Below are positions 1 through 19,432 of a DNA stretch of 64,000 nucleotides, in pieces. Made by a program: the position numbers and the translations under genes. Numbering within the stretch: the first letter of the stretch is position 1; each line of letters begins with the position of its first letter. The notes under the pieces are model-generated. The model did not search any database and had not been told where the DNA came from. It saw nothing but the letters and a program-made list of their open reading frames with translations. This DNA is from Candidatus Omnitrophota bacterium (GTDB lineage Bacteria > Omnitrophota > Gorgyraeia > Zapsychrales > Fredricksoniimonadaceae). The stretch lies in assembly GCA_903860135.1 (NCBI GenBank), contig CAIOPG010000008.1, forward strand, positions 127 to 64,126. Reading direction: 5' to 3'.

Positions 1-75
1 GAAAATTTCCAAATCTATTACAAATATATACTATTAATTATAGGCGTGCCATTTTTTCTTGATTTTAGAAAAGAA

Positions 76-339
76 TTACGCTTGGTCTTTACGGCAGACA
101 GAAATACGCAGATGATCATACAGAAATTCAGGCGCGATATCCACGCCATTATCCCATACGACCGTTCGCATCAGAGGATCAACTTTTGCCGTCTTGAACA
201 ATAATACATCCTTCAGCGGACCGAAGACCTCGCCTTCAAGTTCATCGGCAAGATCAATTTCACCTGAAGCCCCGTCATTAAAGGCGACATACAATATATA
301 GTCATGAAGGTATTGCACACTACTTACATGAAGGATCAT
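76..339 (-). CDS. DUF2442-family small protein; partner of the upstream DUF4160 protein
   Basis: 87-aa ORF directly downstream of, and co-oriented with, the DUF4160-like ORF. The sequence matches the DUF2442 family as I recall it. Sits in an AT-rich local context. Confidence 0.55.
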   Translation of the reverse strand: MILHVSSVQYLHDYILYVAFNDGASGEIDLADELEGEVFGPLKDVLLFKTAKVDPLMRTVVWDNGVDIAPEFLYDHLRISVCRKDQA

Positions 340-343
340 ACAT

Positions 344-601
344 TTATTCCAATGGCTTAATTGGGAAAAGCTGTTTCTTGCTAATTGCCAATTCCCATTC
401 TTTTCTTAGTTCATCCTGATGTATTTGACGCCACTCCTGAACAAGACCCAACGCACGTCTTGACATAGCTCCAGTCACTTGACCGCTTTCGATCTCGACG
501 ATGACTTCATCATCACCATAACGGGCATGAAAATGTGCCGGAGCATGCTCACGCCAGAAAATATAAATCACTATCCCATAAAACTGACTAATAATTGGCA
601 T
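344..601 (-). CDS. DUF4160-family small protein; half of a DUF4160/DUF2442 two-gene cassette
   Basis: 85-aa ORF with a 5-nt gap to the DUF2442 ORF. The pair is a widespread putative toxin-antitoxin-like module. Lower GC than the flanks. Confidence 0.55.
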   Translation of the reverse strand: MPIISQFYGIVIYIFWREHAPAHFHARYGDDEVIVEIESGQVTGAMSRRALGLVQEWRQIHQDELRKEWELAISKKQLFPIKPLE

Positions 602-683
602 ATCTTTAACCTTGAAACCATCTTAATTCTTAATGAATAATGCAATATGCTATAAGTTTAGCATAAAACATGATGGAATAAAC

Positions 684-1832
684 CTAATTCTCCTGCACAC
701 TCACCAGCTTGCCCATGTGTTCGAGTTTGGCGGCGATGAGGGGGATGATGGTTGCGCGGGGGAGGATGCCTTGTTTGCGGTAGGAGAGGTCTTTATTGGC
801 AGGATTCTTGGCACGGCCGACCATGAAATTGACACGGTCAGCGCCTTTAAGGAGGAGTGCCAGGTCGGCGGCGGCGCTTTGGTCGGAATCATGCTCAAGG
901 TCTTCGCCCAGGATATTGTAAACCTGGTTTAAGGTCACAGCACCCTCGGTGACGAGGTCGATCCCCTCGATGAAATAGCGCGGGGGTGTTGAATAAGAAA
1001 CAGGTTTTTGTTCAACCTCAAGCGTCTCCTGGGCACAGCGCGCCACGATATCAGCCGTCGTTGCCCCGCATACCACTTTAAGCCCTTCCCGACCCAGAAA
1101 ATCATGCACCAGGGCCATGTCGCGCGCACGGTCCAGGGCTGGCCCGGTCAACAGATCCACGACCTGGCCCTGGCGGCAGGAAATAACGGCCACCGTCTTG
1201 TCGTCGCCATTGACGGGGCCGTCGTGCTCCTGGGCCTGACGCAGGATGTCGCGGACCACAAACCGCAGGGGCCTGCCCCGCCCGGCCCAGCCGCGCAGGA
1301 ATTCTTCCACCCCGTCGCTCCCCCAACCCATCGGGAAAGAACGCCCGATCCCGGCCTGGGTTATGCCGTCGCTGACCAGCACAAGGCCATCGCCCGGATC
1401 CAGCTGGCCGTGATATTCATGCGCCACCCCGGCCGGGATCACCAAAGGATGCGCTTCCAACACATGAGCTTCTTTCGTCCCCAGAAATAATGGGGGCGGC
1501 ATTTCATACCCGAGGGCTGTAAGGGCGCCGTCATTTAAAATACGCGCCACAAGGAACGCCGTAAACGGCTTGGTCCCGTCACGCCACTGGTTCATGGTCG
1601 CCACGACGCTCAGGAACGCATCGCGCAAGGACATGCCTGACTGCAGGAGTGCCGCCAGGCGTGCAGTATTCATGCGCGCGGCCACATGCGCCCTGACGCC
1701 GGAACCGACCCCGTCGGCACAGATAAGCGTGGTGTGATAGATGGTGCGTTTGCACAGGAACGTATCGCCGCAGGGATTCCCCGGCTTCTTGGAAACATGC
1801 TGGAACTCGACTTCAAAATGATGATACGGCAT
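684..1832 (-). CDS. PP2C/SpoIIE-type serine phosphatase with an uncharacterised C-terminal domain; signalling partner of the sensory hydrogenase
   Basis: 382 aa. The N-terminal ~240 aa have the PP2C/SpoIIE fold signature (acidic metal-binding motifs VSDG/DGIT). Immediately downstream of the PAS-hydrogenase with a 3-nt gap, as in Hfs/HydS loci. Confidence 0.7.
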   Translation of the reverse strand: MPYHHFEVEFQHVSKKPGNPCGDTFLCKRTIYHTTLICADGVGSGVRAHVAARMNTARLAALLQSGMSLRDAFLSVVATMNQWRDGTKPFTAFLVARILNDGALTALGYEMPPPLFLGTKEAHVLEAHPLVIPAGVAHEYHGQLDPGDGLVLVSDGITQAGIGRSFPMGWGSDGVEEFLRGWAGRGRPLRFVVRDILRQAQEHDGPVNGDDKTVAVISCRQGQVVDLLTGPALDRARDMALVHDFLGREGLKVVCGATTADIVARCAQETLEVEQKPVSYSTPPRYFIEGIDLVTEGAVTLNQVYNILGEDLEHDSDQSAAADLALLLKGADRVNFMVGRAKNPANKDLSYRKQGILPRATIIPLIAAKLEHMGKLVSVQEN

Positions 1833-1834
1833 GT

Positions 1835-3568
1835 TTAAGTTTTCTTATCCTTATCCTCGGCAATATCCTTGCTGTCCACCGCTTGCATGAGTTTATTGAC
1901 GAGCTGTTCGCCCCTGGCGGTGTATTCACCGAGGAAATCGGCAAACTGGCGGGCCATTTCGATCTGGTGTTCATGCAGTTCGCGCGCCTGGGAAACCGTG
2001 TCATCTTTGACTTTTTGCAAGCGCTCGGCGTTGAGGCGGCTGTCGGTGATGTTGATGAATATCCCCACAAACTGCTTCTCGGCACGCAAGGCATACACCA
2101 GTTCCCGGGCAATGATCCCCTGGGCTTTATGGGCCCGCACATCATCGGCCATTTCGATCTCGCCGGACTTCACGCGCGAGAACGGTTCAGGATCCATCAG
2201 ATGGGACACATGCTGGCCGCAACATGATTCATTGACCCGGAACAACCGCGCAAAAGCAGGATTAAAATTCAGGATATTAAGGTCATGGTCGAGGACAATG
2301 ATCCCGTTGGGGCTGGTTTCCATGATCCGGTCCGACCGCTGTTCCGCCAGGCGGCGCATGTACGGGATGCACATCTCGGTTTCCGCCATGCCCTGAACAA
2401 CGGCCATGGCCTGGTCGCGGCAGGACGCATACCCGCACGCCCCGCAATTCAGCTGATTTTCTTCCCTGGCCTTGCCGGTTTTCTCGAGCACCGCGCGCAC
2501 CTCATCTTCGGGCACCGCGGACCCGGCATGGGGATGAGGCGCAAAAGCCGTTGCCAACTCCACCGCCCCGGCCTTCCGGGCAGTTACCCCGGGATTGCTC
2601 CGGGCATAACGGATGATCCTGGCCCGGCGGTCAACCACATTCCCGGCCTTGCCAATGCCCGCGCCGTTCACACAACCGTACGCGCACAACAGCGGTTCAA
2701 TGATGCGGGGAAAAGCACCCCGGGCCGCCTCTTCGAGAACATTCTTCAACGCCTCAAACCCGCTGATAAAAAGGAGCTTGTCATCGAGAACGCTGGTCTC
2801 AAACGCCGCGGTCGCCATCGAACCGCCTTCAACAGGAAACAGCCGACTCCGCCCGACCGGTTGTTCATCAAAAGAGCTGTCCTCGCAGGTTGCCAGATCA
2901 ATGCCCCGGAGCCTGAACCATTCGTCGAGCTCGTCGAAGGTCAAAACACAATCCACCAGGCCGGAAAACTCCGGACGATCAGCTTCCGCTTTCTTGGCCA
3001 CACACGGCCCGATAAAAACAACTTTAACCTGCGCGAACTTCGCCCGGATATGGCGCGCGTGCGCGATCATGGGCGACACTACCGGCACGAGATTCCCGAT
3101 CATGCCCGGATCATATTTCTCAATATAGGAAACAACCGCAGGGCATGCGGTACAAATATACGTTTTCGCAGGATCCTGCACACAGGCGGCGGTCTTTTCC
3201 GCCACCAGGTACGCCCCCACCGCCGTCTCGGCCACATGCGCAAACCCCAGGCGGCGCAGGGCCGCCGGGATACGGGCATACTGCCAGGGCTCGAAAATGC
3301 CGGCAAAAGACGGCGCCAGGCTGACCGCCACCAGAGGATTGTTGGCCACAAGGTCCATGGCAACCGCCAGGTCCCGACGGAAGGTCTTGGCCTCCTGGGG
3401 GCATTCCCGCACACAGGTTCCGCAATGGATACAGCGCTCCGCGTCCACAAAGGCCTGACCCTCGACGATACGGACAGCCTTGACCGGGCACACCCGCACA
3501 CAGCGGTAACAATCACGGCACCGTGCCTTGTTGGTAAAAACCACCTGCCGGGAATTGCCTTCGCCCAT
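1835..3568 (-). CDS. hydS: Putative sensory [FeFe]-hydrogenase (HydS-like, group C): 4Fe-4S ferredoxin domains + H-cluster domain + C-terminal PAS domain
   Basis: Two CxxCxxCxxxCP ferredoxin motifs. H-cluster-like motifs (FIGPCVAKK, CAYGCVNGAG). C-terminal PAS-like segment. The track start at 3646 overlaps hydA; the ATG at 3568 (MGEGNSRQVVF...) gives a 12-nt gap and is preferred. Confidence 0.8.
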   Translation of the reverse strand: MGEGNSRQVVFTNKARCRDCYRCVRVCPVKAVRIVEGQAFVDAERCIHCGTCVRECPQEAKTFRRDLAVAMDLVANNPLVAVSLAPSFAGIFEPWQYARIPAALRRLGFAHVAETAVGAYLVAEKTAACVQDPAKTYICTACPAVVSYIEKYDPGMIGNLVPVVSPMIAHARHIRAKFAQVKVVFIGPCVAKKAEADRPEFSGLVDCVLTFDELDEWFRLRGIDLATCEDSSFDEQPVGRSRLFPVEGGSMATAAFETSVLDDKLLFISGFEALKNVLEEAARGAFPRIIEPLLCAYGCVNGAGIGKAGNVVDRRARIIRYARSNPGVTARKAGAVELATAFAPHPHAGSAVPEDEVRAVLEKTGKAREENQLNCGACGYASCRDQAMAVVQGMAETEMCIPYMRRLAEQRSDRIMETSPNGIIVLDHDLNILNFNPAFARLFRVNESCCGQHVSHLMDPEPFSRVKSGEIEMADDVRAHKAQGIIARELVYALRAEKQFVGIFINITDSRLNAERLQKVKDDTVSQARELHEHQIEMARQFADFLGEYTARGEQLVNKLMQAVDSKDIAEDKDKKT

Positions 3569-3579
3569 AAGCCGTCTTC

Positions 3580-5604
3580 CTATCCTTTGGCCTGCCGCGC
3601 AGCCAGGGCCTTGTCCACCGCCTGCACCGCCTTGGCCACGTCGCAATGGGTGATGGTGAGATCCCCCACTTTCACGGTCGGACCCTTATTGCATTTCTCA
3701 AAACAGAACGTCGCCTTGACCTGGACAATATCCTGCAGATTCTTCTCATGGATATACCGCGTCATGTGATGCAGGATGTCCTGTGCCCCTTTAAGGTAAC
3801 AGCTTGTCCCCACACACACCCGGATCTCGAGCTTGTCATGTTGTTTCCCGTCGACAATGATCATGGATTTCCCGCGCATGCGGCGGCGGGCATTGTAATG
3901 GGTGTGCAAGGCATGATGCGCCTTCTCACTGCCCGGGCTCCCGAGTTTCGATGCGTACAATTCCTTGACGTAGGGATTATCCTGCGACTTGTGCAGCTGC
4001 AGCATCTTGTCGGCTTCATACAGGCCCTTGGTGCGCTTGGCCTTGTACCCCGGCGTCAGATTGACCGGCTGACCGGCCCCATTAATACACCCGGCCGGAC
4101 AGGACATGAATTCAATGAAATGATACTGGATCTTCCCGGCCTTGAGCTTTTCGAGGAAAGCGCGCGCATTGGCCAAAGAATGCACCACCGCCAGGCGGAA
4201 GGTCTTGCCGGCTAAGGTCACTTCAGCCTCACGGATACCGGCCTCGCCGCGCACCGCGTGAAAATCCGGGTTCTCAAGCGTTTTGCCCTCGACTTTTTCA
4301 TACACATACCGCAACGCCGCCTCCATCACACCGCCGGTATTACCGAAAATGACACCGGCACCCGTCTTGAACCCCAGCGGCATATCCAGCGAGCCCGGCT
4401 GAAGGTCACGGAACTGAATGCCGAACTGATTGATCATCTGCACCAGCTCCTGGGTCGTGATCACATGATCAACCTCGGGCATGCCGTCGTGCGTGAATTC
4501 CGGGCGTTTGGCCTCGAATTTCTTGGCTGTGCACGGCATGATCGACACAACAACCATATTTTCGGGCGCGATCCCGAGCTCCGCCGCAAACAGCGACTTG
4601 GCCACAGAACCAAACATCTGCTGGGGCGATTTGCAGCTGGAAAGATTGGGGATCATTTCAGGATAATGCTGTTCCACAAACTTGACCCACGCCGGACAGC
4701 AAGACGTGAACATCGGCAGGATCCCGTTATTGGTCACACGGTTGATGAATTCATTGCCTTCTTCGAGGATCGTGAGGTCGGCGCTGAAACACGTATCGAA
4801 TACTTTCTTGAAACCCATGATCTTGAGCGCGGCCACGATCTGACCGGTCGTCAATTCACCCGGCTGATACCCGAACGCTTCCCCCAGCGCCACACGCACC
4901 GCCGGCGCGATCTGCGCGATCACAACCTTCTTTGTGTCATTCACGGATTTCCATACCGCTTCGACCTCCGAGCGCGGCGTCAAGGCTCCCGTCGGGCACA
5001 CGCGCGCGCACTGGCCGCACAACACACACGCAACACTTTCAAGGTCTTTCCCGAAAGCGGGCTGGACCACCACGTCATGGCCGCGATGCGCAAAATCAAT
5101 GGCACCGATACCCTGCACTTCCGCGCACATGCGCACGCAGTCGCCGCAAAGGATGCACTTGTTGGGATTGCGCACGATCGACGTCGAACTTGTGTCAATA
5201 GGATGTGGTTTCTGCACAGAACGGAAACGCACCTTGTCTACCCCCAGCCGCTTGGAAATATCCTGCAGTTTGCAATTGGTGCTTTTCACGCACGTCGTGC
5301 ATTCGCGGTCATGATTGGCCAGGATAAGCTCCAGCGCGATCTTGCGGATCTGACGCACTTCGGCGGTATTGGTTTTAACCTTCATCCCCGCTTCGGGAGG
5401 TGTCGAACACGACGTCAAAAGGCCGCGCCCCTCGATCTCAACGGTACACATCCGGCAGGCGCCGTACACACTCAGCTCCGACACATAGCAGAACGTCGGG
5501 ATATCGATATGGGCCTTGCGAATAACCTCAAGGAGGTTCTTCTCCCCCTCTATCGGCACTTCACGCCCGTCAATGTTGACATACTTAACAGCATCCATGG
5601 TCAA
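3580..5604 (-). CDS. hydA: [FeFe]-hydrogenase catalytic subunit HydA of a trimeric bifurcating-type enzyme, with a C-terminal thioredoxin-like [2Fe-2S] domain
   Basis: 674 aa. Has an N-terminal 2Fe-2S NuoG-like fold, 4Fe-4S motifs, the H-cluster signatures TSCCPAW / MPCTAKKFE / MSCPAGCINGAGQP, and a C-terminal CxxxxC...CxxxC NuoE-like domain, as in Thermotoga-type HydA. Confidence 0.9.
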   Translation of the reverse strand: MTMDAVKYVNIDGREVPIEGEKNLLEVIRKAHIDIPTFCYVSELSVYGACRMCTVEIEGRGLLTSCSTPPEAGMKVKTNTAEVRQIRKIALELILANHDRECTTCVKSTNCKLQDISKRLGVDKVRFRSVQKPHPIDTSSTSIVRNPNKCILCGDCVRMCAEVQGIGAIDFAHRGHDVVVQPAFGKDLESVACVLCGQCARVCPTGALTPRSEVEAVWKSVNDTKKVVIAQIAPAVRVALGEAFGYQPGELTTGQIVAALKIMGFKKVFDTCFSADLTILEEGNEFINRVTNNGILPMFTSCCPAWVKFVEQHYPEMIPNLSSCKSPQQMFGSVAKSLFAAELGIAPENMVVVSIMPCTAKKFEAKRPEFTHDGMPEVDHVITTQELVQMINQFGIQFRDLQPGSLDMPLGFKTGAGVIFGNTGGVMEAALRYVYEKVEGKTLENPDFHAVRGEAGIREAEVTLAGKTFRLAVVHSLANARAFLEKLKAGKIQYHFIEFMSCPAGCINGAGQPVNLTPGYKAKRTKGLYEADKMLQLHKSQDNPYVKELYASKLGSPGSEKAHHALHTHYNARRRMRGKSMIIVDGKQHDKLEIRVCVGTSCYLKGAQDILHHMTRYIHEKNLQDIVQVKATFCFEKCNKGPTVKVGDLTITHCDVAKAVQAVDKALAARQAKG

Positions 5605-7502
5605 ACCCCCGTGATAGCATCAAATTTACATGTGGCCGCGCAAACCCCGCAACGGATACAAATATCCGCGTTGAGGACATGCGGCTTCTTGACTTCACCT
5701 TTAATCGCGCCCACCGGGCACTTTTTCACGCACGCCGTACACCCCTTGCACTTGTCGGGATGGATCTCGGGCCTGGCCAGCTTCTTGCACTCACCCGTCG
5801 GGCAACGCTTGTCAACGACGTGAGCCAAATACTCATCATAAAAATACTTGAGCGTCGACAGGACCGGATTGGGCGCCGTCTTTCCAAGGCCGCACAAGGA
5901 CCCCTTCTGGACAACGATTGCCAATTCTTTAAGAAGGTCGAGCGTTTCCATCGTTGCCCGGCCTTCGGTGATATCTTCCAGAAGATACAGCATCTGCTTG
6001 GTGCCCTCGCGGCACAGGACACATTTGCCGCAAGATTCTTTCTGCGTGAACTGCATGAAATATTTCGCGATATTGACCATGCACGTCGATTTGTTCATGC
6101 ACACCAGCCCGCCTGAACCCACCATGGCGCCGATACTGCGCAGGGAATCAAAATCAAGCATCAGGTCAAAATGTTCGCGCGTCAGGCATCCGCCCGACGG
6201 ACCGCCGATCTGCACCGCCTTAAAACCCTCAGGATCGATCCGCCCCTTCTTGTCGGTCACACCGCCGCCCACCTGAAAAATGATCTCCTTCAGCGTAACG
6301 CCAAAAGGAACCTCAATGAGCCCCGTATTGGCCACATGGCCGGACAAAGCGAATGTCTTGGTACCCGGAGATGTCGGTGTTCCCAGCGCCCGGAACGCGG
6401 CAACTCCGATATTCATGATCAAAGGAACTGTGGCCAAGGTCTCAACATTATTGATGACCGTGGGTTTGCCCCACAGGCCGCTCTGTGCCGGGAACGGCGG
6501 CTTGGGCTTGGGCATCCCGCGATCGCCTTCGATGGACGCCATGAGCGCGGTCTCTTCGCCGCACACAAAAGCACCCGCGCCTTCCATAACATTCACGTTG
6601 AACTTCATGCCGGTGCCAAAAACATTATCACCGAGGATCCCTGCCGCCCGGGCATCGTCGCACGCCTGACGGACACGCTTGACCGCCAGCGGATATTCCG
6701 CCCGCACATACACATACCCTTCATCGGCACCGATGGCGCGCGCCGCGATCATCATCCCCTCGATCACCGCGTGCGGATTGCCTTCCATCACCGAGCGGTC
6801 CATGAACGCCCCCGGATCCCCTTCGTCACCGTTACAAATAATATATTTCTTGTCATTCTTCTGCACACGGCACACATCCCATTTCTTGCCCGTCGGGAAA
6901 CCACCGCCGCCACGCCCGCGCAGGCCGGAATCGATCAAATCCTTGCAAATAGCTTCGGGCGTCATCTCCATATAGGCTTTCTTGGCCGCCGCATACCCGC
7001 CGATAGCTTGATATTCCTGAATATCTTCAGGATTCAGCTCGCCGCACTGCTTGAGGACAAAGCGCGACTGGCGCTGGTAGAAAGGGATCTCTTTCTGCGA
7101 CCGGCAATGCTGTCCTGACACAGGATCAACATACAAAAGGCTGTCGATAACCTCACCGTTCATCAAGGTTTTTTCGACAACACTTTTCACATCCGCAGGT
7201 GTAACCCGATTATAAAGGATATCATCGGGCATGATCTTGACCAAAGGCCCCATCTGGCAAAACCCCTGACAGCCGCTCTTGGAAATATACACCGTGCCGC
7301 CCTTGTCCGTACTGGAAGAAGCCCCTTCAAATGTCGTAACCACTTTAAGCCCAAGGGCATTGACCTCAGCCGCAAAAGCCTTATATACCTCCATCGCCCC
7401 ATTGGCCACACAGCCGGTTCCGGTACAAATGATGATCTTTTTCTTCAAGCCGCCCTTGCCCTCGATGATCAATGCGGCGGAACCCTCCTTAAACTGACAC
7501 AT
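5601..7502 (-). CDS. hydB: NuoF-like flavoprotein subunit HydB (NADH-binding, FMN, Fe-S) of the bifurcating hydrogenase
   Basis: 633 aa. Has an N-terminal thioredoxin-like domain, the NuoF 51-kDa core (GLRGRGGGGFPTGKKW, SLCGLG) and C-terminal 2x[4Fe-4S] motifs. Overlaps hydA by 4 nt. Confidence 0.9.
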   Translation of the reverse strand: MCQFKEGSAALIIEGKGGLKKKIIICTGTGCVANGAMEVYKAFAAEVNALGLKVVTTFEGASSSTDKGGTVYISKSGCQGFCQMGPLVKIMPDDILYNRVTPADVKSVVEKTLMNGEVIDSLLYVDPVSGQHCRSQKEIPFYQRQSRFVLKQCGELNPEDIQEYQAIGGYAAAKKAYMEMTPEAICKDLIDSGLRGRGGGGFPTGKKWDVCRVQKNDKKYIICNGDEGDPGAFMDRSVMEGNPHAVIEGMMIAARAIGADEGYVYVRAEYPLAVKRVRQACDDARAAGILGDNVFGTGMKFNVNVMEGAGAFVCGEETALMASIEGDRGMPKPKPPFPAQSGLWGKPTVINNVETLATVPLIMNIGVAAFRALGTPTSPGTKTFALSGHVANTGLIEVPFGVTLKEIIFQVGGGVTDKKGRIDPEGFKAVQIGGPSGGCLTREHFDLMLDFDSLRSIGAMVGSGGLVCMNKSTCMVNIAKYFMQFTQKESCGKCVLCREGTKQMLYLLEDITEGRATMETLDLLKELAIVVQKGSLCGLGKTAPNPVLSTLKYFYDEYLAHVVDKRCPTGECKKLARPEIHPDKCKGCTACVKKCPVGAIKGEVKKPHVLNADICIRCGVCAATCKFDAITGV

Positions 7503-8010
7503 GCGTGCTCTCCTCTTTCTTTTTGATATCTTCCAGAAGCTTTAAGGCTTTTACAGAAGTCATTTGCCCGTACACCGTTTCATTGACCACGATGACCGGA
7601 GCCAAACCGCAGGCGCCCAGGCATGACACGGTCTCGACCGTAAACAGCATGTCCGGCGTGGTCACATCCGTGCCGGTCAAACCGAGTTTCTGGCGCAGGG
7701 CATCGAGCAAATTTTCCGAACCTTTCACATGGCAAGCTGTCCCGTCGCACAGGCGCACCACATATTTCCCCTTGGGCACCAGCGCAAAATGCGCGTAAAA
7801 AGACGCCACCCCGTACACCTTGGCCGGCGACAAGCTCAGGGTCGTCGCCACAAAGGTCATGACTTCCTCGGGAAGATAGCGATATTCATCCTGGACTTCC
7901 TGCAAGATGGGGATCAGTTTGGCCGGATCAGCACCATGCCGTTCGACAATGGCGCAAACCTTTTCAAATTTTCGATACATCACTGTTGGCATTGTTCTCT
8001 CCTTGATCAC
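7489..8010 (-). CDS. hydC: NuoE-like [2Fe-2S] subunit HydC of the bifurcating hydrogenase
   Basis: 173-aa track ORF. NuoE 24-kDa signature (CDGTACHVKG...CLGACGLAPV). The true start is probably a downstream Met near 7980-7992, to limit overlap with rex. Confidence 0.85.
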   Translation of the reverse strand: MIKERTMPTVMYRKFEKVCAIVERHGADPAKLIPILQEVQDEYRYLPEEVMTFVATTLSLSPAKVYGVASFYAHFALVPKGKYVVRLCDGTACHVKGSENLLDALRQKLGLTGTDVTTPDMLFTVETVSCLGACGLAPVIVVNETVYGQMTSVKALKLLEDIKKKEESTHVSV

Positions 8011-8674
8011 GGTTACGTTTAAGATTATTCGTTAACACGGCCAGGCTTTGGGTCAGGCGTGCATTTTCCAGGATAACATCCGCCGGGATGCGCAACGGCG
8101 CCGGCGCAAAATTCCAGATCGCCTTTATCCCGGCATTGACCATCAAATCAACAGCAGACTGCGCATGCTCCGCCGGAACGCTCACGATCCCGATATGGAC
8201 ATGCATCCGCTTTGATAAATTGGCCAACCTATTAAGCGGAAGGACTTCTTTACCAAAAATACGTGTGCCGACCTTACGGGGATCATTATCAAAAGCCGCC
8301 ACAATATTAAGGCCGTACTTTTCAAAATCACGATATCCTAATAGTGCCTTACCAAGATTGCCCGCGCCCACAAGGAACGCATCATGCGCATTGTTCCATC
8401 CCAGAAACTCCTTTATACTGTCCACAAGGCCCGCCACCCGAAAACCGATGCGCGCCGTCCCCACCTCACCAGTAACCTCAAGATCCTTGCGTACCTGTGT
8501 CGGATCAAAATCAAATTCTTTGGCGATCTGCGTGCAGGAAACATATTCAGCACCCTCGGCCATCACTTTTTCCAGAAGATGCAAGTACAGCGGAAGCCTT
8601 TTGAGTGTCGAACGCGAGACCACCAAAGGTTTTTTCTTGAATATCATCCGGAATTCCTCCTGCCGGCACCCCAT
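7964..8674 (-). CDS. rex: Redox-sensing transcriptional repressor Rex
   Basis: Has an N-terminal winged-helix region (LKRLPLYLHLLE) and a C-terminal Rossmann NADH-binding fold (FLVGAGNLGKALL). It is the first gene of the hydrogenase operon, as is typical. The start may be the ATG at 8647. Confidence 0.85.
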   Translation of the reverse strand: MGCRQEEFRMIFKKKPLVVSRSTLKRLPLYLHLLEKVMAEGAEYVSCTQIAKEFDFDPTQVRKDLEVTGEVGTARIGFRVAGLVDSIKEFLGWNNAHDAFLVGAGNLGKALLGYRDFEKYGLNIVAAFDNDPRKVGTRIFGKEVLPLNRLANLSKRMHVHIGIVSVPAEHAQSAVDLMVNAGIKAIWNFAPAPLRIPADVILENARLTQSLAVLTNNLKRNRDQGENNANSDVSKI

Positions 8675-8692
8675 CGCCCGCGCCCTTTAATA

Positions 8693-8774
8693 GAGAAAAT
8701 TTTATCGATAAAACTTTGTTCAAATATAGCACGGGAAAAAGTCATGTCAAGAAAATTTTCTCGATTAAAACTTG
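8693..8774. promoter_or_regulatory. Two related palindromic operator-like sites flanking the rex promoter: GAAAATTTTATCGATAAAACTTTG at 8693-8718 and GAAAATTTTCTCGATTAAAACTTG at 8751-8774
   Basis: Direct repeat of a ~24-nt unit, each with a palindromic core. TTTTATCGATAAAA is a perfect 14-bp palindrome. One site overlaps the predicted TSS and the other abuts the -35. A related palindrome occurs upstream of the second hydrogenase operon. Confidence 0.3.
8723..8750 (-). promoter_or_regulatory. Sigma70-like promoter of the rex-hydCBA-hydS operon (TTGACA-N16-TATATT on the minus strand)
   Basis: rc of 8745-8750 is TTGACA and rc of 8723-8728 is TATATT, with a 16-nt spacer. It lies ~50-80 nt upstream of the rex start codons. 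Confidence 0.35.
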
Positions 8775-8816
8775 CGATTTAAGTGAAACTTGTAAATATG
8801 GATACCAAGATTAAAA

Positions 8817-8861
8817 CCCTCCTCCACGAGCGAAGCGAGTGTGGGGAGGGACGGGGAGGGG
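8817..8861. repeat. GC-rich hairpin element CCCTCCTCCACGAGCGAAGCGAGTGTGGGGAGGG(ACGGGGAGGGGG); one of three related copies in the window
   Basis: Inverted repeat CCCTCC..CAC / GTG..GGAGGG. Related copies occur at 19243-19269 and 26396-26422. Confidence 0.35.
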
Positions 8862-8937
8862 GCATTAAGTCATGCAGAAAAGAAGGAAATCTTTAACCGT
8901 TACGCTAAGAACAGATTCGCATCGCCTCGTCGACATC

Positions 8938-9171
8938 TCAGGCAACATCGTCTGCCGGCAGATCCGGAAGCTTCGCCCTGATACTGTCCAGTACCCTAAA
9001 GCGCTCCTCCCTCGAATCCGCCAGCCGGGCATAATCCTGAGCATTAAGGATAACCACCATCGGAATACCTGATTTCTCGACAACAAACCGGGCACCATCC
9101 TTATACGACCGCCGCATGATTTCCCCAAAATGCGTCCTAGCCTCGACCGCAGAAATAGTGTCCACTGTCAT
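8938..9171 (-). CDS. Phd/YefM-family type II antitoxin (apparently orphan)
   Basis: 77 aa with a typical Phd/YefM N-terminus (ISAVEARTHFGEIMRR...PMVVIL). Only a 23-codon remnant ORF follows it where a toxin gene would be expected. Confidence 0.65.
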   Translation of the reverse strand: MTVDTISAVEARTHFGEIMRRSYKDGARFVVEKSGIPMVVILNAQDYARLADSREERFRVLDSIRAKLPDLPADDVA

Positions 9172-9194
9172 ATCATTCCTCTGATTACCCCTGC

Positions 9195-10307
9195 TCAGCC
9201 CTTTTCCTGCCCTTGACGCCGCGGCTGTTCTTCTATCCGCTGGGACTGAAACGCAGCCTTGACGTCCGACATACCACTGACGCTCTTGATCGCGATATCT
9301 TCAACTTTCTGATACGCCTTGTCCAACTGCGCCGAGAGGCGGGCAATCTGTTCTTTTTGTTCCTTGCCCAAACGCTCGAGTGCCTCAAGCTGGGATACCA
9401 GCACATTCTTTTCACCTTCCAGCGTCTTGCGCAGAAGCTCCTCGCGATTTCTTGCCTCCAGCTGAACCCGCTCCACCGCCTCTTTAACGGCTCGCTGGAT
9501 CGATGTGTCAAGTTCTTTCGGAAAACCGTCGACGCGTTTCTGAAGATCAGCCAACAATTTTTCTCCGTCGACAACGGTCTTTTCCCGGAACAATAATTCT
9601 TTTTCCAGAGTTTCCTTCTTCAAACGCAACTCTTTTTCCATCCGGACTTTTTCATCTTCAATCACATTTTTCGCCAGCACCTGTTCGCGCTTGAAGGCGT
9701 AGTCGTATTCTTCTTTTTCCCGCTGGCGCCGACGATTTTCTTCCGTATCCCGCTCCTTGCTCATCTGCTGATAATCTTTCTTTTCCTTCTCATATCCGGC
9801 ACGCAGGGTGTTGATCTCAAGCGTGATCTCATCTTTCTCCCGTGCCATCGCCGCGTCGAAATCTTCTTTCCTGGCCGCCTGTGCATCCAACAAAGCCGCC
9901 AACGTCTGGGCGTTCTTTTCGATGCCGTAGATCTCCTGAAGCTCCCGCTCCTTAACACTGACAGCCTCCCGAACCCGAGCGTATTTCTGAACCTCTTCCT
10001 GCAGGGAATCTGCCAGATGACTCAACATCTTCCCGATTTCCACCCGCAGCCCGCTCGTTTCCTTCACGACATTTTCCAGGGACAGCGCATTGGTTGTTTC
10101 TACCGCCGCTTTTTCACGTTTCTTCTCAATCTCAAACTCCGGCCGCAATTCCACCCGCTCTTTATCCTGGGATTGTTTCAACTGATCGTTATAGGCATCC
10201 AGCAAATTCTCTTTTGAACTTTTCTTCACTACTTTCTTTTCAGCCATGACTAACTCCTTGTTATTATTTTCAATAAGATGTCGATGCATTAACCCATTGC
10301 TGAACAA
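9195..10307 (-). CDS. Hypothetical coiled-coil protein rich in charged (E/K/R) heptads
   Basis: 370-aa ORF with no recognisable catalytic motif and strongly alpha-helical, charged repeats. The real start is likely MAEKKVVKK at 10247. Confidence 0.45.
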   Translation of the reverse strand: MFSNGLMHRHLIENNNKELVMAEKKVVKKSSKENLLDAYNDQLKQSQDKERVELRPEFEIEKKREKAAVETTNALSLENVVKETSGLRVEIGKMLSHLADSLQEEVQKYARVREAVSVKERELQEIYGIEKNAQTLAALLDAQAARKEDFDAAMAREKDEITLEINTLRAGYEKEKKDYQQMSKERDTEENRRRQREKEEYDYAFKREQVLAKNVIEDEKVRMEKELRLKKETLEKELLFREKTVVDGEKLLADLQKRVDGFPKELDTSIQRAVKEAVERVQLEARNREELLRKTLEGEKNVLVSQLEALERLGKEQKEQIARLSAQLDKAYQKVEDIAIKSVSGMSDVKAAFQSQRIEEQPRRQGQEKG

Positions 10308-10459
10308 TCACCCCCGGCCAAAATGCTATGCGTTTATGGGAACAATATCAAGACAAAATTGGAATGATATTGGAACATATTGTAAACTAACGAGTTGTGA
10401 AATATATAGTTAATCATGGAGAATAAAACCAATAAAATAACACAAAGAAACACCTATAA

Positions 10460-11614
10460 TCAATCCGTCTTCACAAGAAATATGTCAAGCGCCTGACGCC
10501 ATGGTAAAACAACAATGTCATGGGGCAATTTCCGGGGATGCGCATCCTTCAATGATACGATGAACACCGGCAATGCTGGAAAACGCTTGCGTAAAGCTAT
10601 CCGAGCGTCATCGGATATTGTTTCCAATGAGGTCTTACACTCAAACGCCATCACAGGACCGCGAGGCCCTGTGACCAGGATATCAACCTCATGTTTCCCT
10701 TCCCTCCAAAAAGCTAACTCATACGGCTTTTCATGATAATCCCTGATACGCCTTAGTTCATTATAAAAGAATGTCTCGAACAAAAATCCCTTCTCCTGTG
10801 GCGTAGGTGAATCTGTCAAACGATTCTGCAATGCCCGCACAACCCCGCAATCGAAGAAATAAAACTTCGGACGTGCCTTCTTTCGTTCACTCCTGTCCCA
10901 CGGCCACAAGAAACTCCCCAGGAGCGTATCTTCCAGAATTGAAAAATATTCTTTCACCGTACTCATAGAAACCGATGAATCTCGCGACACCGAAGCAAAC
11001 TCAATAGTCTCTGCATTCATTTGAGCCGCCACAGCTAGAAACCTCTGAAAAGCACCCACATTGCGGGTCAAGGCCTCAGCCTGGACTTCTTCTTTGATGT
11101 AAATGGTACCATACGCTTTTAACTGCCGTCGGACATCATCTACTTTGCCTTCAAGAAACGTTGTCACCACACGTGGCAATGTTCCATACGCCAAAGCCAT
11201 TTCAACATCAAACGCTTTCCCGATCTCCTCATGCGTCAACGGATAGAGCCGGAGATCCAACGCCCTTCCTCCCAGCAAGTTAGCACTATCCCTGCGCAGC
11301 TTTCGAGCGCTTGAACCGGAAAGAATAAATCTCAACCCTAGTTCTTCTATCCCCTTTTGCACATAATTTAATAGAACCGGAACACGCTGGATCTCGTCGA
11401 TAATAACCAGATCATCCTTGCTCAACATCTGCAACTTTTGCCAAAATAAAGACGGCGAACGCGACAAGGAAAGCTCAACTTCAGGATCCAGCAAATCCAG
11501 AAAAAGCGCATGCCGCAATTGGCGCAACAAAAAAGTCTTGCCTGTCATGCGAGGGCCAAACAAGAAAAGAGAGCCGGAAATCTTATTTAATTGAAGGGAT
11601 CGATGAAAGTTCAT
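10460..11614 (-). CDS. AAA+ ATPase with a C-terminal DUF4143 domain (AAA_14/DUF4143 'ATP-binding protein' family)
   Basis: 384 aa. Walker A GPRMTGKT near the N-terminus and Walker B-like DLVIIDEIQ. The C-terminal region resembles DUF4143 proteins. Lower GC than the hydrogenase genes. Confidence 0.7.
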   Translation of the reverse strand: MNFHRSLQLNKISGSLFLFGPRMTGKTFLLRQLRHALFLDLLDPEVELSLSRSPSLFWQKLQMLSKDDLVIIDEIQRVPVLLNYVQKGIEELGLRFILSGSSARKLRRDSANLLGGRALDLRLYPLTHEEIGKAFDVEMALAYGTLPRVVTTFLEGKVDDVRRQLKAYGTIYIKEEVQAEALTRNVGAFQRFLAVAAQMNAETIEFASVSRDSSVSMSTVKEYFSILEDTLLGSFLWPWDRSERKKARPKFYFFDCGVVRALQNRLTDSPTPQEKGFLFETFFYNELRRIRDYHEKPYELAFWREGKHEVDILVTGPRGPVMAFECKTSLETISDDARIALRKRFPALPVFIVSLKDAHPRKLPHDIVVLPWRQALDIFLVKTD

Positions 11615-11703
11615 ATTAAGAGAATAACATATATATGTTATTTATCAAACTTAAATAACAACTCATTGGCGTCAGCAGTTCAAATCAGCTCAGCCAATAA
11701 GCA

Positions 11704-12855
11704 TTAGACCGCAGAACCATTCTTAATTCTTAATAGCTCATACCTTAAGTCAGATTTAAATAATGTCGGGCTTAAACTCTTCAATCTCTTTTGAACCGTA
11801 TCTAAAGCCGGTTTCGAATTATCAATGCCAATCCACCTCCGACCTAGTTCATTCGCTGCCATAATAGTTGTTCCAGATCCCAAAAAACAATCCATAACCA
11901 CATCATCTTCATCTGAAGAAGTCGTAATAATACGCCGCACAAGCTCTATATTCTTCTCTGTCGGATATTGGGGATACATGGGATCTTTGTACTCCCAGAT
12001 ATCTTGGACTCTTTTCCCTCTTTCACGCGCATCTTCCATAAAAATTCTTTTTCTTGGTACGTTATTCTTCGACCATTCAACAAGCCCAGCCTTATCTAGG
12101 TTTTCCAGTTCAGCGGGATCACTCCGCCAATGACGCCCCTTGGGCGGAAGAATCCCTCTCCAAGCCTTGCCTGTTGATCCATTAGCCGTCTCTCCCGGAG
12201 CATGTAACGGAATCGTGGTATAATGCCGTCCATTTTCATCAACCTTTAAAAAAAGCTTTCTTACTTCATCTCCCTTAAAAGCCTCTCGCGGCTCATGCCA
12301 GGTATATTTACCCGTCTTTGAATAGAAAAGGATCAAGTCTTTAATATTTCCATACCCTTTACGACTAAAATTCTTTGGGCTACATTTAATGCGCGCGATA
12401 TCATTTCTAAAATTAGAAATACCGAATATCTCATCCATCATGATTTTCACATAATGCCCGATTTTATAATCAATATGAAGGTAAATGGACGCCTTATCTG
12501 ACATTAATTCTCGCATCAAAATAAGTCGCTGTCGTAAAAACTCAATGAACTCCGCACCGATAAGATTGTCTTCATACGCCGTCTCATCACTTTGAGCAAA
12601 ACTAATCGTACTGGTTCTTGTTTTTCCGATTTTGAAAGTGTTTCTTGTAGAAAAAGGAGGGTCAATATAAATCAAATCAATACTCTTGCTCAAATTCAGA
12701 TCATACAATAAGCACTTTAGAACCTTTAGATTGTCTCCAAATATTAATTTATTCTCATGACCTTTCATCCCATTCTCAGTCAGTAATTCACCACGATCAT
12801 GTTTGCTTAATACGCAAGCTTCAGATAATTTATTCTTATATTCTAATGATATCAT
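11704..12855 (-). CDS. Type II restriction-modification DNA methyltransferase (amino-methyltransferase, beta class: N6-adenine or N4-cytosine)
   Basis: 383 aa. Motif IV DPPF (IYIDPPFS) precedes motif I (FLGSGTT) near the C-terminus, which is the beta-class order. AT-rich (~35-40% GC) compared with the flanks. Confidence 0.8.
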   Translation of the reverse strand: MISLEYKNKLSEACVLSKHDRGELLTENGMKGHENKLIFGDNLKVLKCLLYDLNLSKSIDLIYIDPPFSTRNTFKIGKTRTSTISFAQSDETAYEDNLIGAEFIEFLRQRLILMRELMSDKASIYLHIDYKIGHYVKIMMDEIFGISNFRNDIARIKCSPKNFSRKGYGNIKDLILFYSKTGKYTWHEPREAFKGDEVRKLFLKVDENGRHYTTIPLHAPGETANGSTGKAWRGILPPKGRHWRSDPAELENLDKAGLVEWSKNNVPRKRIFMEDARERGKRVQDIWEYKDPMYPQYPTEKNIELVRRIITTSSDEDDVVMDCFLGSGTTIMAANELGRRWIGIDNSKPALDTVQKRLKSLSPTLFKSDLRYELLRIKNGSAV

Positions 12856-12867
12856 CGATAACCCTTT

Positions 12868-13719
12868 TTAAACCTGATATAAGAAATCCCGCAATACGAG
12901 TGAACTCATTATGTTGTATTTTTGCTTGTTAGTCGCAATAAAATCATACATTTTATTTCCACTCTTGATATATAAAACCCCATCCAATATCGCAATCTTG
13001 ACAGCCGTGACATCCTTTGCTTCTAACGTCTGGATGGCATCTTGAAACTGTGCGTTCTGATGCCCTCCGAAATCAGTAAGAAACTTAGCCTCACCAATAA
13101 TATACTTCCCGTTAAATCTTGCGACAAAATCCAAACCTTTGGGATGAGAATATCCAAGATACTTTTCTGCAAACAATCGCATCTCTGCATCCCCCGCATC
13201 CAGCACGGCATTCTCCGAGGAAAGAAGAAACTTCTCGGAGCTTAGTAAGCTCACACCCAAAGTCTTTTTATTTAACCATCGACGAAACAATGGTCCAATC
13301 TGTCGATTTGTTTCTTTAGGCTCAGTGCACTTTTTAAAGATTTCTGTCAATCCCATTTCATATATTCGACCGGCCAAGCGGTTAACTGTTTCAGGATTCC
13401 TCTTTAATGCACCCCGGTCTCTCTTAAAATAAGCAACATATGAGTCTTTGATCGGAAACAATTCAAGATCTAACAAAGACTCTATTAATGCCCCGTTGTC
13501 TTTCTTTAAAAATGATGACTCCACAGTTCTCCACAGCGCATTATCAACCTCTCTAATGCCCTCCGGGATAATAGGATAAACTTTATAAAGCTCATCAAGG
13601 TAATTTCTCTGATTGGCATAATCAACACTCATTTGTGTCCAAATATTCATACGTAACCTTTCAGCTTCTATAAAGAATGTACGGGAAAAGACATGCTTTC
13701 TATACCGTAACAATACCAC
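12868..13719 (-). CDS. Putative Type II restriction endonuclease partnered with the adjacent methyltransferase
   Basis: 283-aa ORF immediately upstream of, and co-oriented with, the methyltransferase (12-nt gap). AT-rich. No family recognised; a possible PD-(D/E)xK-like segment (IIGEAKF) is present. The real start may be internal (MNIWTQ...). Confidence 0.4.
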   Translation of the reverse strand: MVLLRYRKHVFSRTFFIEAERLRMNIWTQMSVDYANQRNYLDELYKVYPIIPEGIREVDNALWRTVESSFLKKDNGALIESLLDLELFPIKDSYVAYFKRDRGALKRNPETVNRLAGRIYEMGLTEIFKKCTEPKETNRQIGPLFRRWLNKKTLGVSLLSSEKFLLSSENAVLDAGDAEMRLFAEKYLGYSHPKGLDFVARFNGKYIIGEAKFLTDFGGHQNAQFQDAIQTLEAKDVTAVKIAILDGVLYIKSGNKMYDFIATNKQKYNIMSSLVLRDFLYQV

Positions 13720-13824: not shown

Positions 13825-14817
13825 TTACAGCTGAATCTTCAAGCTATGCCCGGCATCCGTGGCAACGGTTCGGCCCAGGGTGCGGAGCATGCCGGCGACA
13901 CAGTTGCGGCAGTCACCGGGAGCGTCGTTGATGCAGATCTTGCCGGGGTAAAGCTGGTAGTGCTGGCGGTAGCGTGTGGGCGTGACATTGGGCATGAGGA
14001 CATTGGCACCGCAACGCAGGGCTTGCTCGCGGCCGCCTTTTTCGATCGAGCCCATGGCGGTGGTGGCGGGAATATGCGTATTCCTTGTTAAAATACGCAA
14101 TAAAGCAACAACCTTGAGCGTCAGCGCAAGCGTGCCGCTGGCAATAGCCCCCAGAGGGGTGCGAGGATCAGCGATAAAGGGGCCGATGCCGATCATGTCA
14201 AGATCGAGTGCCTTCATTTGAAGAATATCATCAGTCAAAATATCCGGCGTCTGGCCTGGCAGGCCAACCATGATCCCGGAACCAACCTGGAAGCCAACCT
14301 CTTTCAGCCACCGCAGGCATTGCATGCGCGCGGCATACGAAGAATCCGGTTTTAACCTGGCGAACAACGCTTCCGATGATGTTTCAAAGCGCAAGAGATA
14401 GCGGTCGGCTCCGGCTGAACGCAGAGCGGCATATTCTTCTTTGGTCTTCTCGCCCATCGAAAGCGTGAGCGCGATCCCCAACTCGGCCTTGATGCGGCGC
14501 ACTAAAAGGCACATTGCGATCAGCGGATACCGGTCATTCTCGCCGGATTGCAGGACCAGCGTCTTGTAGCCGAGGCCGGCGGCTGTTTTCGCTGTTTCAA
14601 AGATCTCATCCACATCCATGCGGTAACGCGCCACCGTGCGGCTGGATGCACGGATCCCGCAATACAGGCAATCGCGAGCGCAAATATTGGAGAATTCAAT
14701 CAGGCCGCGCAAATGCACGGCATCGCCCACACATTCCCGCCGCACACGGTCCGCCGCGGCAAAAAGCTCTGCCGTGTCCGGCGAAGCAAGCGCTTCAAGA
14801 ATATCCGCCCTATTCAT
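13825..14817 (-). CDS. hydE: [FeFe]-hydrogenase maturase HydE (radical SAM)
   Basis: The CxxxCxxC motif (CARDCLYCGI) sits at the expected position. Size is ~330 aa, matching the biotin-synthase-like HydE family. The start was chosen at MNRADIL (14817), which abuts the hydG stop. Confidence 0.85.
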   Translation of the reverse strand: MNRADILEALASPDTAELFAAADRVRRECVGDAVHLRGLIEFSNICARDCLYCGIRASSRTVARYRMDVDEIFETAKTAAGLGYKTLVLQSGENDRYPLIAMCLLVRRIKAELGIALTLSMGEKTKEEYAALRSAGADRYLLRFETSSEALFARLKPDSSYAARMQCLRWLKEVGFQVGSGIMVGLPGQTPDILTDDILQMKALDLDMIGIGPFIADPRTPLGAIASGTLALTLKVVALLRILTRNTHIPATTAMGSIEKGGREQALRCGANVLMPNVTPTRYRQHYQLYPGKICINDAPGDCRNCVAGMLRTLGRTVATDAGHSLKIQL

Positions 14818-14818
14818 C

Positions 14819-19224: not shown

Positions 19225-19242
19225 TTCCACCCCTCCCCTAAC

Positions 19243-19269
19243 CCCTCCCACGCTGACGCGGGGAGGGGA
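19243..19269. repeat. GC-rich hairpin element CCCCTCCCACGCTGACGCGGGGAGGGG (5' UTR of the maturase operon); second copy of a recurrent motif
   Basis: Inverted repeat CCCCTCCC / GGGAGGGG with an inner CGC/GCG stem. Near-identical core to 26396-26422. Confidence 0.4.
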
Positions 19270-19295
19270 ACTTTTATAAGATCACCCATATTAAG

Positions 19296-19342: not shown

Positions 19343-19432
19343 CATTAAAACGATGATTGTCCGATCCCTTGGATTCAAGCTGAACATTTCAGCTCTGACC
19401 GCAGGTGATGATCAATTATAACACAAACGTAC

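Follow-up and report, generated by a model that had tools for sequence, protein, structure and literature searches.

The 64,000-nucleotide stretch of DNA from an uncultured Candidatus Omnitrophota bacterium analysed here (contig CAIOPG010000008.1, called "the window" below) carries a compact hydrogenase operon near its beginning. Positions 684 to 8674 are filled by six minus-strand open reading frames (ORFs), all running in one direction in the order rex-hydC-hydB-hydA-hydS-pp2c. They encode a Rex-type repressor, the three subunits of an [FeFe] hydrogenase, a further and putatively H2-sensing [FeFe] hydrogenase (HydS), and a PP2C phosphatase; the six genes together are referred to as the cassette. 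Gene identities were assigned by Pfam and NCBIfam profile scans, judged against the cut-offs of these libraries, and by sequence searches of the PDB. The scans confirm all six genes and the domains that had been assigned to them in a preliminary description made from the sequence alone. The genes and domains are as follows.

7964 to 8647, minus strand: rex, whose product combines a winged helix with a Rossmann domain that binds NAD(H); the reading frame stays open to 8674, with ATG 8647 as the likely start
7489 to 7992, minus strand: hydC, the NuoE-like [2Fe-2S] subunit (PF01257, E = 3.6e-50); the ORF is open to 8010
5601 to 7502, minus strand: hydB, the NuoF-like FMN/NADH subunit, which has a Trx-like 2Fe-2S domain at its N-terminus and two [4Fe-4S] clusters at its C-terminus
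3580 to 5604, minus strand: hydA, the catalytic [FeFe] hydrogenase, with a C-terminal Trx-like 2Fe-2S domain (PF01257, residues 588-665)
1835 to 3568, minus strand: hydS, the putative H2-sensing [FeFe] hydrogenase, 577 amino acids, start ATG 3568
1170 to 1832, minus strand: pp2c, catalytic domain of the SpoIIE-family PP2C, residues 1-221, without an N-terminal regulatory domain
687 to 1169, minus strand: pp2c, C-terminal alpha/beta domain (CTD), residues 222-382, family-specific

The likely start of rex is preceded by a Shine-Dalgarno sequence, GGAGGA, at 8660-8655. Rex scores 279.6 bits against NF003994 (cut-off 130), contains PF06971 and PF02629, and has the Thermotoga maritima Rex 3wg9 as its best PDB match (1.8e-41). 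The likely start of hydC, ATG 7992, gives a 29-nucleotide overlap with the 3' end of rex; the orthologues of HydC have 164-174 residues. In HydB the profile scans find the N-terminal Trx-like 2Fe-2S domain, Complex1_51K, NADH_4Fe-4S and two Fer4 domains, and the best PDB matches are 7t2r_B, 8a6t_B ("electron bifurcating hydrogenase subunit HydB") and 7p5h_B. HydA has intact H-cluster motifs (L1 TSCCP, L2 MPCTAKK, L3 EFMSCPAGCINGAGQP) and scores 800.1 bits against NF040763, "NADH-dependent [FeFe] hydrogenase, group A6" (cut-off 765). Its best PDB match is the electron-bifurcating HydA1 8a6t_A (5.7e-182), and HydA of T. maritima, 7p5h_A, aligns to residues 9-662. This alignment takes in the tail domain, the Trx-like character of which had been recognized correctly. 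Because of the strong homology to structurally solved HydABC complexes, the HydABC of the cassette is presumed to be an electron-bifurcating/confurcating [FeFe] hydrogenase linking NADH and reduced ferredoxin to H2.

HydS had been read as a protein of 603 amino acids. This ORF begins at an upstream TTG that overlaps hydA; the ATG at 3568 lies 11 nucleotides past the hydA stop and gives 577 residues, in agreement with orthologues of 575-576 residues, and is taken as the start for that reason. The pp2c gene starts 2 nucleotides past the hydS stop, and the gene junctions across the whole cassette are tight or overlapping. A single transcription unit is the best explanation of this arrangement and, jointly with the mechanism proposed below, is put forward with moderate confidence. 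No RNA family from Rfam is found in positions 1-24500.

HydS consists of two [4Fe-4S] cluster motifs, the H-domain, a Cx2Cx4Cx16C cluster, a PAS domain and a conserved C-terminal helix, in this order. The profile matches are two Fer4 domains, Fe_hyd_lg_C (PF02906, 3.7e-50) and an FeS domain, PF04060. The Cx2Cx4Cx16C motif is a fourth cluster motif that the preliminary description did not contain. The PAS domain proposed there is recovered above the Pfam cut-offs by PAS_8 (29.6 bits, cut-off 21.8) and by PAS (29.6 bits, cut-off 22.6); PAS_10 is just over its cut-off and PAS_4 under it. The helix that follows the PAS domain is strongly conserved, with the pattern QARELxEHQIxMAxxxAxFLGExTAxGExLV. 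The NCBIfam library has no group C model, and the best match of HydS in it, TIGR04105, is under the cut-off.

The active site of HydS was compared in an alignment with four orthologues and the two HydA paralogues of the window. The four H-cluster cysteines of L1, L2 and L3 are all kept and are invariant in the alignment. In L1 of HydS (ICTACP) the position of the proton-relay cysteine C299 is occupied by alanine, where the HydA paralogues have TSCCP. The M353 position is glycine in L2 (GPCVAKK, against MPCTAKK in the paralogues), and the M497 position is leucine in L3 (EPLLCAYGC, against FMSCPAGC). Replacement at these three positions, numbered as in CpI, has been described for sensory group C enzymes (PMC10055695), and the substitutions that the preliminary description had proposed to look for are therefore present, as Ala, Gly and Leu. 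By its domains, its active-site residues and the adjoining phosphatase, the HydS sequence matches [FeFe] group C3, which HydDB lists as "phosphatase-linked (putative)" (PMC5037454), and the arrangement corresponds to such a sensor next to a bifurcating hydrogenase of group A3. The mechanism of signal transduction by HydS was still called unknown in reviews of 2024 and 2025 (PMC11376134, PMC12578642).

In the phosphatase, the SpoIIE profile PF07228 (57.7 bits, cut-off 25) covers only residues 34-218 of 382. The PP2C metal ligands D23, D40, D155, D210 and D211 are invariant in a family alignment of 42 sequences, so that the catalytic residues expected of a PP2C are in place. An AlphaFold2 model of the protein has a predicted local distance difference test (pLDDT) score of 88, and Foldseek finds SpoIIE (5mqh, 7e-14) as well as RsbU and RsbX. 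The extra domain reported at the C-terminus exists. It is larger than had been stated, about 160 residues (222-382) and not about 140, and it is constant in the family of HydS-linked PP2C proteins.

The CTD is at least as conserved as the catalytic domain and has the signature KVVCGxTTA...PPRY...DLVTEGAVTLNQ...ADR...GKLV. Modelled alone, it gives a confident alpha/beta fold (pLDDT 88.8). No PDB fold matches it at E<=1e-3, the best being generic three-layer alpha/beta structures such as methylglyoxal synthase (TM score 0.40). The sole PDB sequence match is a weak local likeness to the C-terminal domain of eIF2alpha, with a full-sequence E of 4e-5 obtained only on a tandem construct and a per-domain E near 1. 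The resemblance lies at CTD profile positions 57-95, in the motif APPRY...(V)TEG..(T)LNQ, and may be a coincidence.

A search of 1.84 billion cluster representatives with the CTD profile gave 916 matches. Among the 150 listed, the domain is always C-terminal, mostly in proteins of about 380 residues, and the shorter proteins are probably fragments. The entire phosphatase has 904 scored homologues, nearly all of about 380-385 residues among the 120 listed. In a scan of one genome per species, 355 genomes encode the CTD.

The six window proteins were mapped by tblastn on 87 related loci fetched for comparison (L-numbers below). The full six-gene cassette, in the same order and with tight spacing, occurs in 43 of the 87, spread over more than ten phyla; in a metagenome-assembled genome (MAG) of Bacillota, L086, it was seen by gene calls. 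The groups represented include Omnitrophota, Planctomycetota, Armatimonadota, Hydrogenedentota, Auribacterota, Aminicenantes, Ignavibacteria/Bacteroidota, Peptococcaceae, Synergistia, Vulcanimicrobiota, Nitrospiraceae and Bacillota. The closest relatives are Candidatus Omnitrophota MAGs with 82-91% identity over all six proteins (L007), and two Hydrogenedentota loci (L044, L057) have the identical six-gene order. Four relatives at 47-59% identity (two metagenomes, an Auribacterota and a Phycisphaerae) retain rex-hydC-hydB-hydA-hydS-pp2c, including the Trx-like tail of HydA, between unrelated flanks. The cassette ends with the PP2C of about 382 residues, and the genes beyond it are unrelated and differ between the lineages examined. 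A small number of rearranged loci and a set of orphan phosphatases depart from this order.

The HydS-PP2C pair is also found in other surroundings. Behind the cassette of the Auribacterota locus L067 stands an hfs-like trio of a second HydS, a 395-residue PP2C and a group B hydrogenase, and in the Spirochaetaceae locus L087 hydS-pp2c stands beside a group B hydrogenase. This recurrence argues for a portable sensor-effector module. The hfs-like PP2C of L067 is only about 28% identical to the window PP2C and has the same CTD (hhalign probability 99.5%, E = 1.9e-22). It belongs to a much larger subfamily, with 7,991 matches (mostly 391-400 residues among the 120 listed), whose hosts are Bacillota, Spirochaetaceae, Bacteroidota and others. 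Since the domain is common to the cassette phosphatases and to the hfs-like one, the CTD is a hallmark of HydS-linked phosphatases in general. Small Trx-like 2Fe-2S proteins of 79-86 residues are encoded at 4986-5246 in L086 and at 4936-5175 and 8256-8513 in L087; they stand before hydS and, in L087, also before the group B hydrogenase. Genes of this kind are absent from the window cassette.

Orphan paralogues of the PP2C with its CTD, of about 415 residues and with an insertion in the PP2C domain, occur in Thermoguttaceae/Planctomycetaceae with no hydrogenase genes nearby.

Orphan PP2C-CTD loci: L020, L021, L023-L025, L031, L036, L037, L039, L050, L054-L056, L064 and L069

The phosphatase-CTD unit can thus occur where no HydS is adjacent; in L037 it has BatA/VWA and UDP-glucose dehydrogenase genes as neighbours. 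The N-terminal extension of the L037 protein was considered as a fused HydS-like helix; it shows no similarity, and the true start is probably downstream.

The position of HydS among the hydrogenase genes allows a different interpretation, in which HydS is an additional catalytic or electron-transfer subunit of the bifurcating complex and the PP2C is a general post-translational regulator. In Hydrogenedentota, a C3 hydrogenase adjoining group A3 BfuABC is indeed called BfuT, and it is labelled the T subunit of BfuABC sub-types IV and V (PMC11406978). HydS retains the four H-cluster cysteines and three accessory clusters, and in this cassette it is always encoded together with HydABC. However, its alanine, glycine and leucine at the proton-relay cysteine, M353 and M497 positions are those of low-activity sensory enzymes (PMC10055695), and a PAS domain and conserved C-terminal helix form part of the protein. 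It is also coupled to a PP2C, and the pair stands beside unrelated hydrogenase classes. The matched HydABC structures (8a6t, 7p5h) gave HydA and HydB chains and no PAS-containing HydS-like chain. A subunit role for HydS is made quite improbable by its altered active site, by the PAS domain and by the fact that the pair recurs beside unrelated hydrogenases, and HydS is treated below as a sensor.

A search of the window for the canonical Rex operator (ROP), TTGTGAA-N4-TTCACAA, gave no match with up to three mismatches in the 64 kb. This empty search led to a variant palindrome, present in two copies around a predicted promoter upstream of rex.

8723 to 8750, minus strand: putative sigma-70-type promoter, TTGACA, 16 nucleotides, TATATT, with an extended TG
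8747 to 8764, palindromic: putative operator O1, TCGAGAAAATTTTCTTGA, a 7-4-7 palindrome of the Rex type in which the half-site is a variant; it overlaps the -35 hexamer
8691 to 8708, palindromic: putative operator O2, TCGATAAAATTTTCTCTA, matching the degenerate consensus at 14 of 14 positions and beginning 15 nucleotides downstream of the -10 hexamer

The promoter agrees with the consensus at 11 of 12 positions, which makes it the best site in 1-9300, and the related locus L001 shows the same arrangement of -35 and -10 hexamers. The consensus of O1 and O2 is the 18-bp sequence TCGA(G/T)AA-N4-TT(C/A)TCGA, and both sites were also recovered independently by a repeat finder. At a threshold of at least 13 of 14 positions the window contains exactly two sites, O1 and O2, with a mean of 0.07 in shuffled sequence. 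Across 40 related loci the same threshold gives 50 sites in the 13 kb upstream of rex and 2 in the other 741 kb, corresponding to 3.83 and 0.003 sites per kb, a difference of about 1000-fold. Equivalent sites upstream of rex are present in 30 of the 40 loci; those with variant palindromes include L001, L003, L004, L007, L008, L012, L015, L018, L022 and L079. The sites often form arrays with a 14-bp phase, in which TCGA ends are held in common. In the sequence examined, the regulon of this operator looks confined to the cassette itself. A limited search of the literature for the operator sequence returned only primer sequences.

The simplest reading of these sites is autoregulation, in which the cassette's own Rex would act through the variant operator. 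The half-site T(C/A)GA(G/T)AA agrees with TTGTGAA at four to five of seven positions. It is also possible, though doubtful, that the palindromes are bound by some other regulator and that the canonical sites on which Rex acts lie elsewhere in the genome. In favour of this, the cassette Rex has a recognition helix, QVRKDL, that looks canonical, yet the window has no canonical ROP. In Auribacterota a canonical ROP, TTGTGAAAAAAATCACAA, lies upstream of the variant operators (L003 2925-2942; the same sequence in L067 and L081), and L013 has a near-canonical ROP only, while its Rex is 71% identical to that of the window. On the other side, the palindromes have the exact 7-4-7 geometry of Rex sites, with the half-site agreement just given; they track the cassette rex across phyla, with only 2 in 741 kb of non-promoter sequence; and the cassette encodes no other DNA-binding protein. 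The coexistence of canonical and variant sites in Auribacterota is a hint that, in some lineages, a single promoter is subject to two Rex specificities. Covariation between the Rex helix and the type of operator was looked for and no clean pattern emerged, the helix differences of L013 being found also in loci with variant operators. Autoregulation by the cassette Rex is retained in what follows.

SpoIIE-family PP2Cs usually act on STAS-type proteins. The search for an RsbW-like kinase or STAS partner that the preliminary description had called for was run on the 64-kb window and on the related neighbourhoods. Pfam scans of the called window ORFs other than 56657-58825, which is LptD-like by eye, found no HATPase_c, STAS or anti-sigma domain. 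The related neighbourhoods that were read, among them rearranged ones and ones with insertions, likewise have no kinase or STAS gene beside the module. The sole HATPase_c seen near a module belongs to a classical two-component kinase of the HisKA kind, encoded in L086 about 2 kb further downstream. The absence of a kinase or antagonist after the phosphatase, noted before as a feature of this organism, is therefore correct as an observation and is the rule for the cassette, since the related loci inspected have none either. L033, L066 and L085, which have insertions or rearrangements, were considered as sources of a partner; their inserted genes encode hydG-like radical SAM proteins, an aminotransferase, beta-lactamase-family proteins and a receiver domain, and no kinase. 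In the window, a 582-residue protein (27854-29602, minus strand) has by eye an HprK/PEPCK-like P-loop (FHGALV...ILFIGDTGAGKSE...ADD). It was rejected as the PP2C partner: its match to PEPCK_ATP is sub-threshold (E = 0.0023), and it has no homologue near related cassettes.

The preliminary description had noted that another gene pair follows the phosphatase instead of a kinase or antagonist.

76 to 601: DUF4160/DUF2442 pair, DhiT/DhiA-like, with both Pfam domains over their cut-offs

The pair does not reach the thresholds of the DhiT/DhiA equivalogs (NF048015, 55.7 bits against a cut-off of 100; NF048016, 22.9 against 200). It resembles a toxin-antitoxin system related to DhiTA, without certified membership. 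It was dropped as a candidate for the signalling output and is placed outside the system, because it is toxin-antitoxin-like, lies where the guanine-plus-cytosine (GC) content drops to 44%, and does not occur downstream of the cassette in those relatives whose flanks were read.

The following mechanism would account for these observations. When the NADH/NAD+ ratio is low, the cassette Rex would bind the two putative operators that bracket the promoter, and would release them when NADH rises. HydABC would couple NADH and reduced ferredoxin to H2. HydS would report H2 by way of its extra [4Fe-4S] cluster, its PAS domain and the conserved C-terminal helix. The PP2C, whose gene is translationally coupled to hydS and which has no regulatory domain of its own, would be switched in trans by HydS, probably through the CTD. 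A PAS domain with a helical linker controlling a PP2C resembles RsbP, here split over two polypeptides. The active phosphatase would then dephosphorylate a Ser/Thr phosphoprotein encoded outside the cassette; as a best guess, this target would be a partner-switching protein of the STAS type or some other regulator that a kinase of the host phosphorylates. The H2 status would in this way be fed into gene expression or enzyme activity. A substrate encoded elsewhere is favoured on account of the preference of SpoIIE-family phosphatases for STAS-type proteins. This output is the weakest step of the mechanism and, with no substrate, kinase or STAS gene found nearby, takes its support solely from family precedent. 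We regard the scheme as a whole, a Rex-controlled HydABC together with H2 signalling from HydS through the PP2C to an external phosphoprotein, as reasonably probable. The combination of two regulatory layers in one operon, with Rex sensing NADH and HydS sensing H2, was already put forward in the preliminary description and is a reasonable reading.

Several points weigh against this scheme. Sensing of H2 in vivo is undemonstrated for any group C hydrogenase (PMC11376134). The CTD, of about 160 residues, to which a role in switching is assigned, belongs to no Pfam family even at E = 10. The operators depart from the canonical Rex site at two half-site positions despite the canonical-looking helix. 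Neither the window nor the surroundings of the module in the loci inspected encode a substrate, a kinase or a STAS protein. Finally, a cassette that passes between phyla would be expected to be self-contained, and an external substrate sits uneasily with that expectation.

The portability of the cassette keeps alive the alternative that its target is Rex or HydABC. In such a feedback the HydS-PP2C pair would act on Rex or on a HydABC subunit, the H2 and NADH signals would be integrated in the six-gene unit, and no dedicated partner-switching proteins would be needed. The six genes travel together in more than ten phyla with a private operator found essentially at their own promoter only, the loci inspected have no adjacent STAS or kinase gene, and the flanking genes differ in each lineage examined. 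However, the pair also exists without Rex and HydABC in the hfs-like clusters of L067 and L087, the phosphatase with its CTD occurs as an orphan without hydrogenase genes nearby (L037), and a kinase would still be required to phosphorylate the target. We know of no report of phosphorylation of Rex or HydABC, which also counts against such a feedback, and we consider it unlikely. More improbable still is an extended form of this idea, in which the cassette would work as an H2/NADH homeostat, self-contained and horizontally mobile: the PP2C would be switched by HydS via the CTD, the CTD would itself supply the partner function, for instance as a docking site for the substrate or as a binding site for a phosphorylated metabolite or nucleotide, and the target would be a cassette protein such as Rex. 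If true, it would explain why most lineages have no dedicated kinase or STAS gene beside HydS. An external phosphoprotein remains the preferred target.

The remainder of the window contains a second set of hydrogenase genes, separated from the cassette by an island of low GC content (37-45%) at about 8865-13719. The island lies upstream of the cassette on the same strand, between the rex cassette and the hydEGF genes. Its genes are for a Phd/YefM-like antitoxin, a coiled-coil protein of 370 residues, an ATPase (AAA_14/DUF4143), and an N6/N4 DNA methylase accompanied by a Tsp45I-type restriction enzyme. In L008, L013 and L042 the maturase genes are close to or directly beside the cassette, and for this reason the island looks like an insertion, which probably split an older hydrogenase supercluster.

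13825 to 23853, minus strand: second hydrogenase cluster, with hydE, hydG, hydF, an aspartase-like lyase, a regulator, and a second HydA, HydB and HydC

The regulator is a TM1266-like "iron-only hydrogenase system regulator" (18976-19251). The second HydA has 587 residues and no Trx-like tail, the second HydB has 579 residues, and HydC is at 23374-23853. Neither the canonical Rex-type operator nor the variant was found in this cluster. The host would thus have two bifurcating-type hydrogenases in the window, only one of them apparently under the control described here.

Further along, a minus-strand gene at 24033-27128 encodes a protein of 1031 residues that has a signal-like segment at its N-terminus and matches nothing in Pfam at E<=1. 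At 29821-32089, also on the minus strand, three paralogous genes with Lcl_C domains lie in tandem, and two of their products have near-identical "SLSLSL" leader peptides. A gene that is RelE-like by eye is found with a Phd/YefM antitoxin gene at 27282-27843, and a BrnT toxin gene with its presumed partner at 32555-33143. With the pair at 76-601 there are three small toxin-antitoxin-like pairs, and mobile addiction modules are common in this stretch. Two adjacent genes for GGDEF diguanylate cyclases, one with a GAF domain, occupy 59838-62348 on the minus strand.

The locus leaves the question of HydS signalling unanswered, and the comparison narrows it. The conserved signalling unit is HydS with a PP2C that carries a family-specific CTD, usually without a kinase or STAS gene in the loci examined. 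In one large lineage this pair forms part of a compact cassette that has a Rex-type repressor of its own and a private operator. The cassette is a defined, portable system that could be rebuilt in a heterologous host together with hydEFG. The analysis is of value chiefly for its comparative results, by which the question of HydS signalling becomes sharper, and for the variant Rex-type operator. A six-gene unit with a private variant operator, a family-wide CTD and a general lack of a neighbouring kinase was not found stated in a limited literature search.

The components of the cassette can be compared with characterized systems. HydA, HydB and HydC correspond domain for domain to the solved HydABC complexes of Thermoanaerobacter kivui and Acetobacterium woodii (8a6t, 7q4v) and of T. 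maritima (7p5h), and the Trx-like tail of HydA is as in T. maritima; the difference is that only HydA and HydB chains came up in the structural matches, and neither HydS nor a PP2C had co-purified with them. The phosphatase has the PF07228 subfamily and the fold of RsbP, RsbU and SpoIIE. It differs from them in having no N-terminal regulatory domain, in its novel CTD, and in having no STAS or RsbW-type kinase gene nearby.

As in the known Rex/ROP systems, rex is the first gene of a hydrogenase operon, an 18-bp 7-4-7 palindrome overlaps the promoter, and the repressor contains a Rossmann domain for NAD(H). What differs is the half-site, which is T(C/A)GA(G/T)AA and not TTGTGAA. A rex-led hydCBA cluster with a near-canonical ROP has already been noted in Caldithrix abyssi (Cabys_3675-3679; PMC5317091).

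HydS resembles TmHydS and TamHydS (PMC10055695, PMC11376134) in the alanine at C299 (A131 in TmHydS), the glycine at M353, which is the commonest sensory variant, the replacement of M497, and the PAS domain. The M497 position is serine in TmHydS and leucine in the window HydS, the latter being known from sequence alone.

In the Thermoanaerobacterium hfsABCD operon, hfsB encodes a HydS-like PAS hydrogenase, hfsC a PP2C and hfsD a group B hydrogenase (PMC5707799, PMC11837493). Deletion of hfsB alters fermentation and adhE expression (PMC5707799), and the genetics of hfsB and hfsC in this genus support a regulatory role (PMC5707799, PMC11837493). The window shares with the hfs operon and with HydS of Ruminococcus albus the HydS-PP2C pair and the presumed H2-dependent regulation, and the CTD is common to the hfs-like trio of L067, by way of which the window PP2C may be taken as the equivalent of HfsC. 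In the window, however, the pair follows a putatively Rex-controlled bifurcating HydABC and not a ferredoxin-linked group B hydrogenase. An adjacent Ser/Thr kinase gene is reported for R. albus, as quoted in PMC5707799; in this respect, as far as the quotation goes, R. albus differs from the cassette, which has none.

The closest correspondence is with the group C3 sensors, which likewise have an H-domain with substitutions of the sensory type, a C-terminal PAS domain and an adjoining Ser/Thr phosphatase, and which stand beside a trimeric bifurcating hydrogenase. There is no essential difference between these C3/BfuT systems and the window locus. The C3/BfuT papers examined make no mention of Rex or of a phosphatase, and hence the six-gene unit, its operator and the CTD are not described in them. 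The window locus is an ordinary copy of a widespread, already classified arrangement, to which the two 18-bp variant Rex-type palindromes at the cassette promoter are the new addition.

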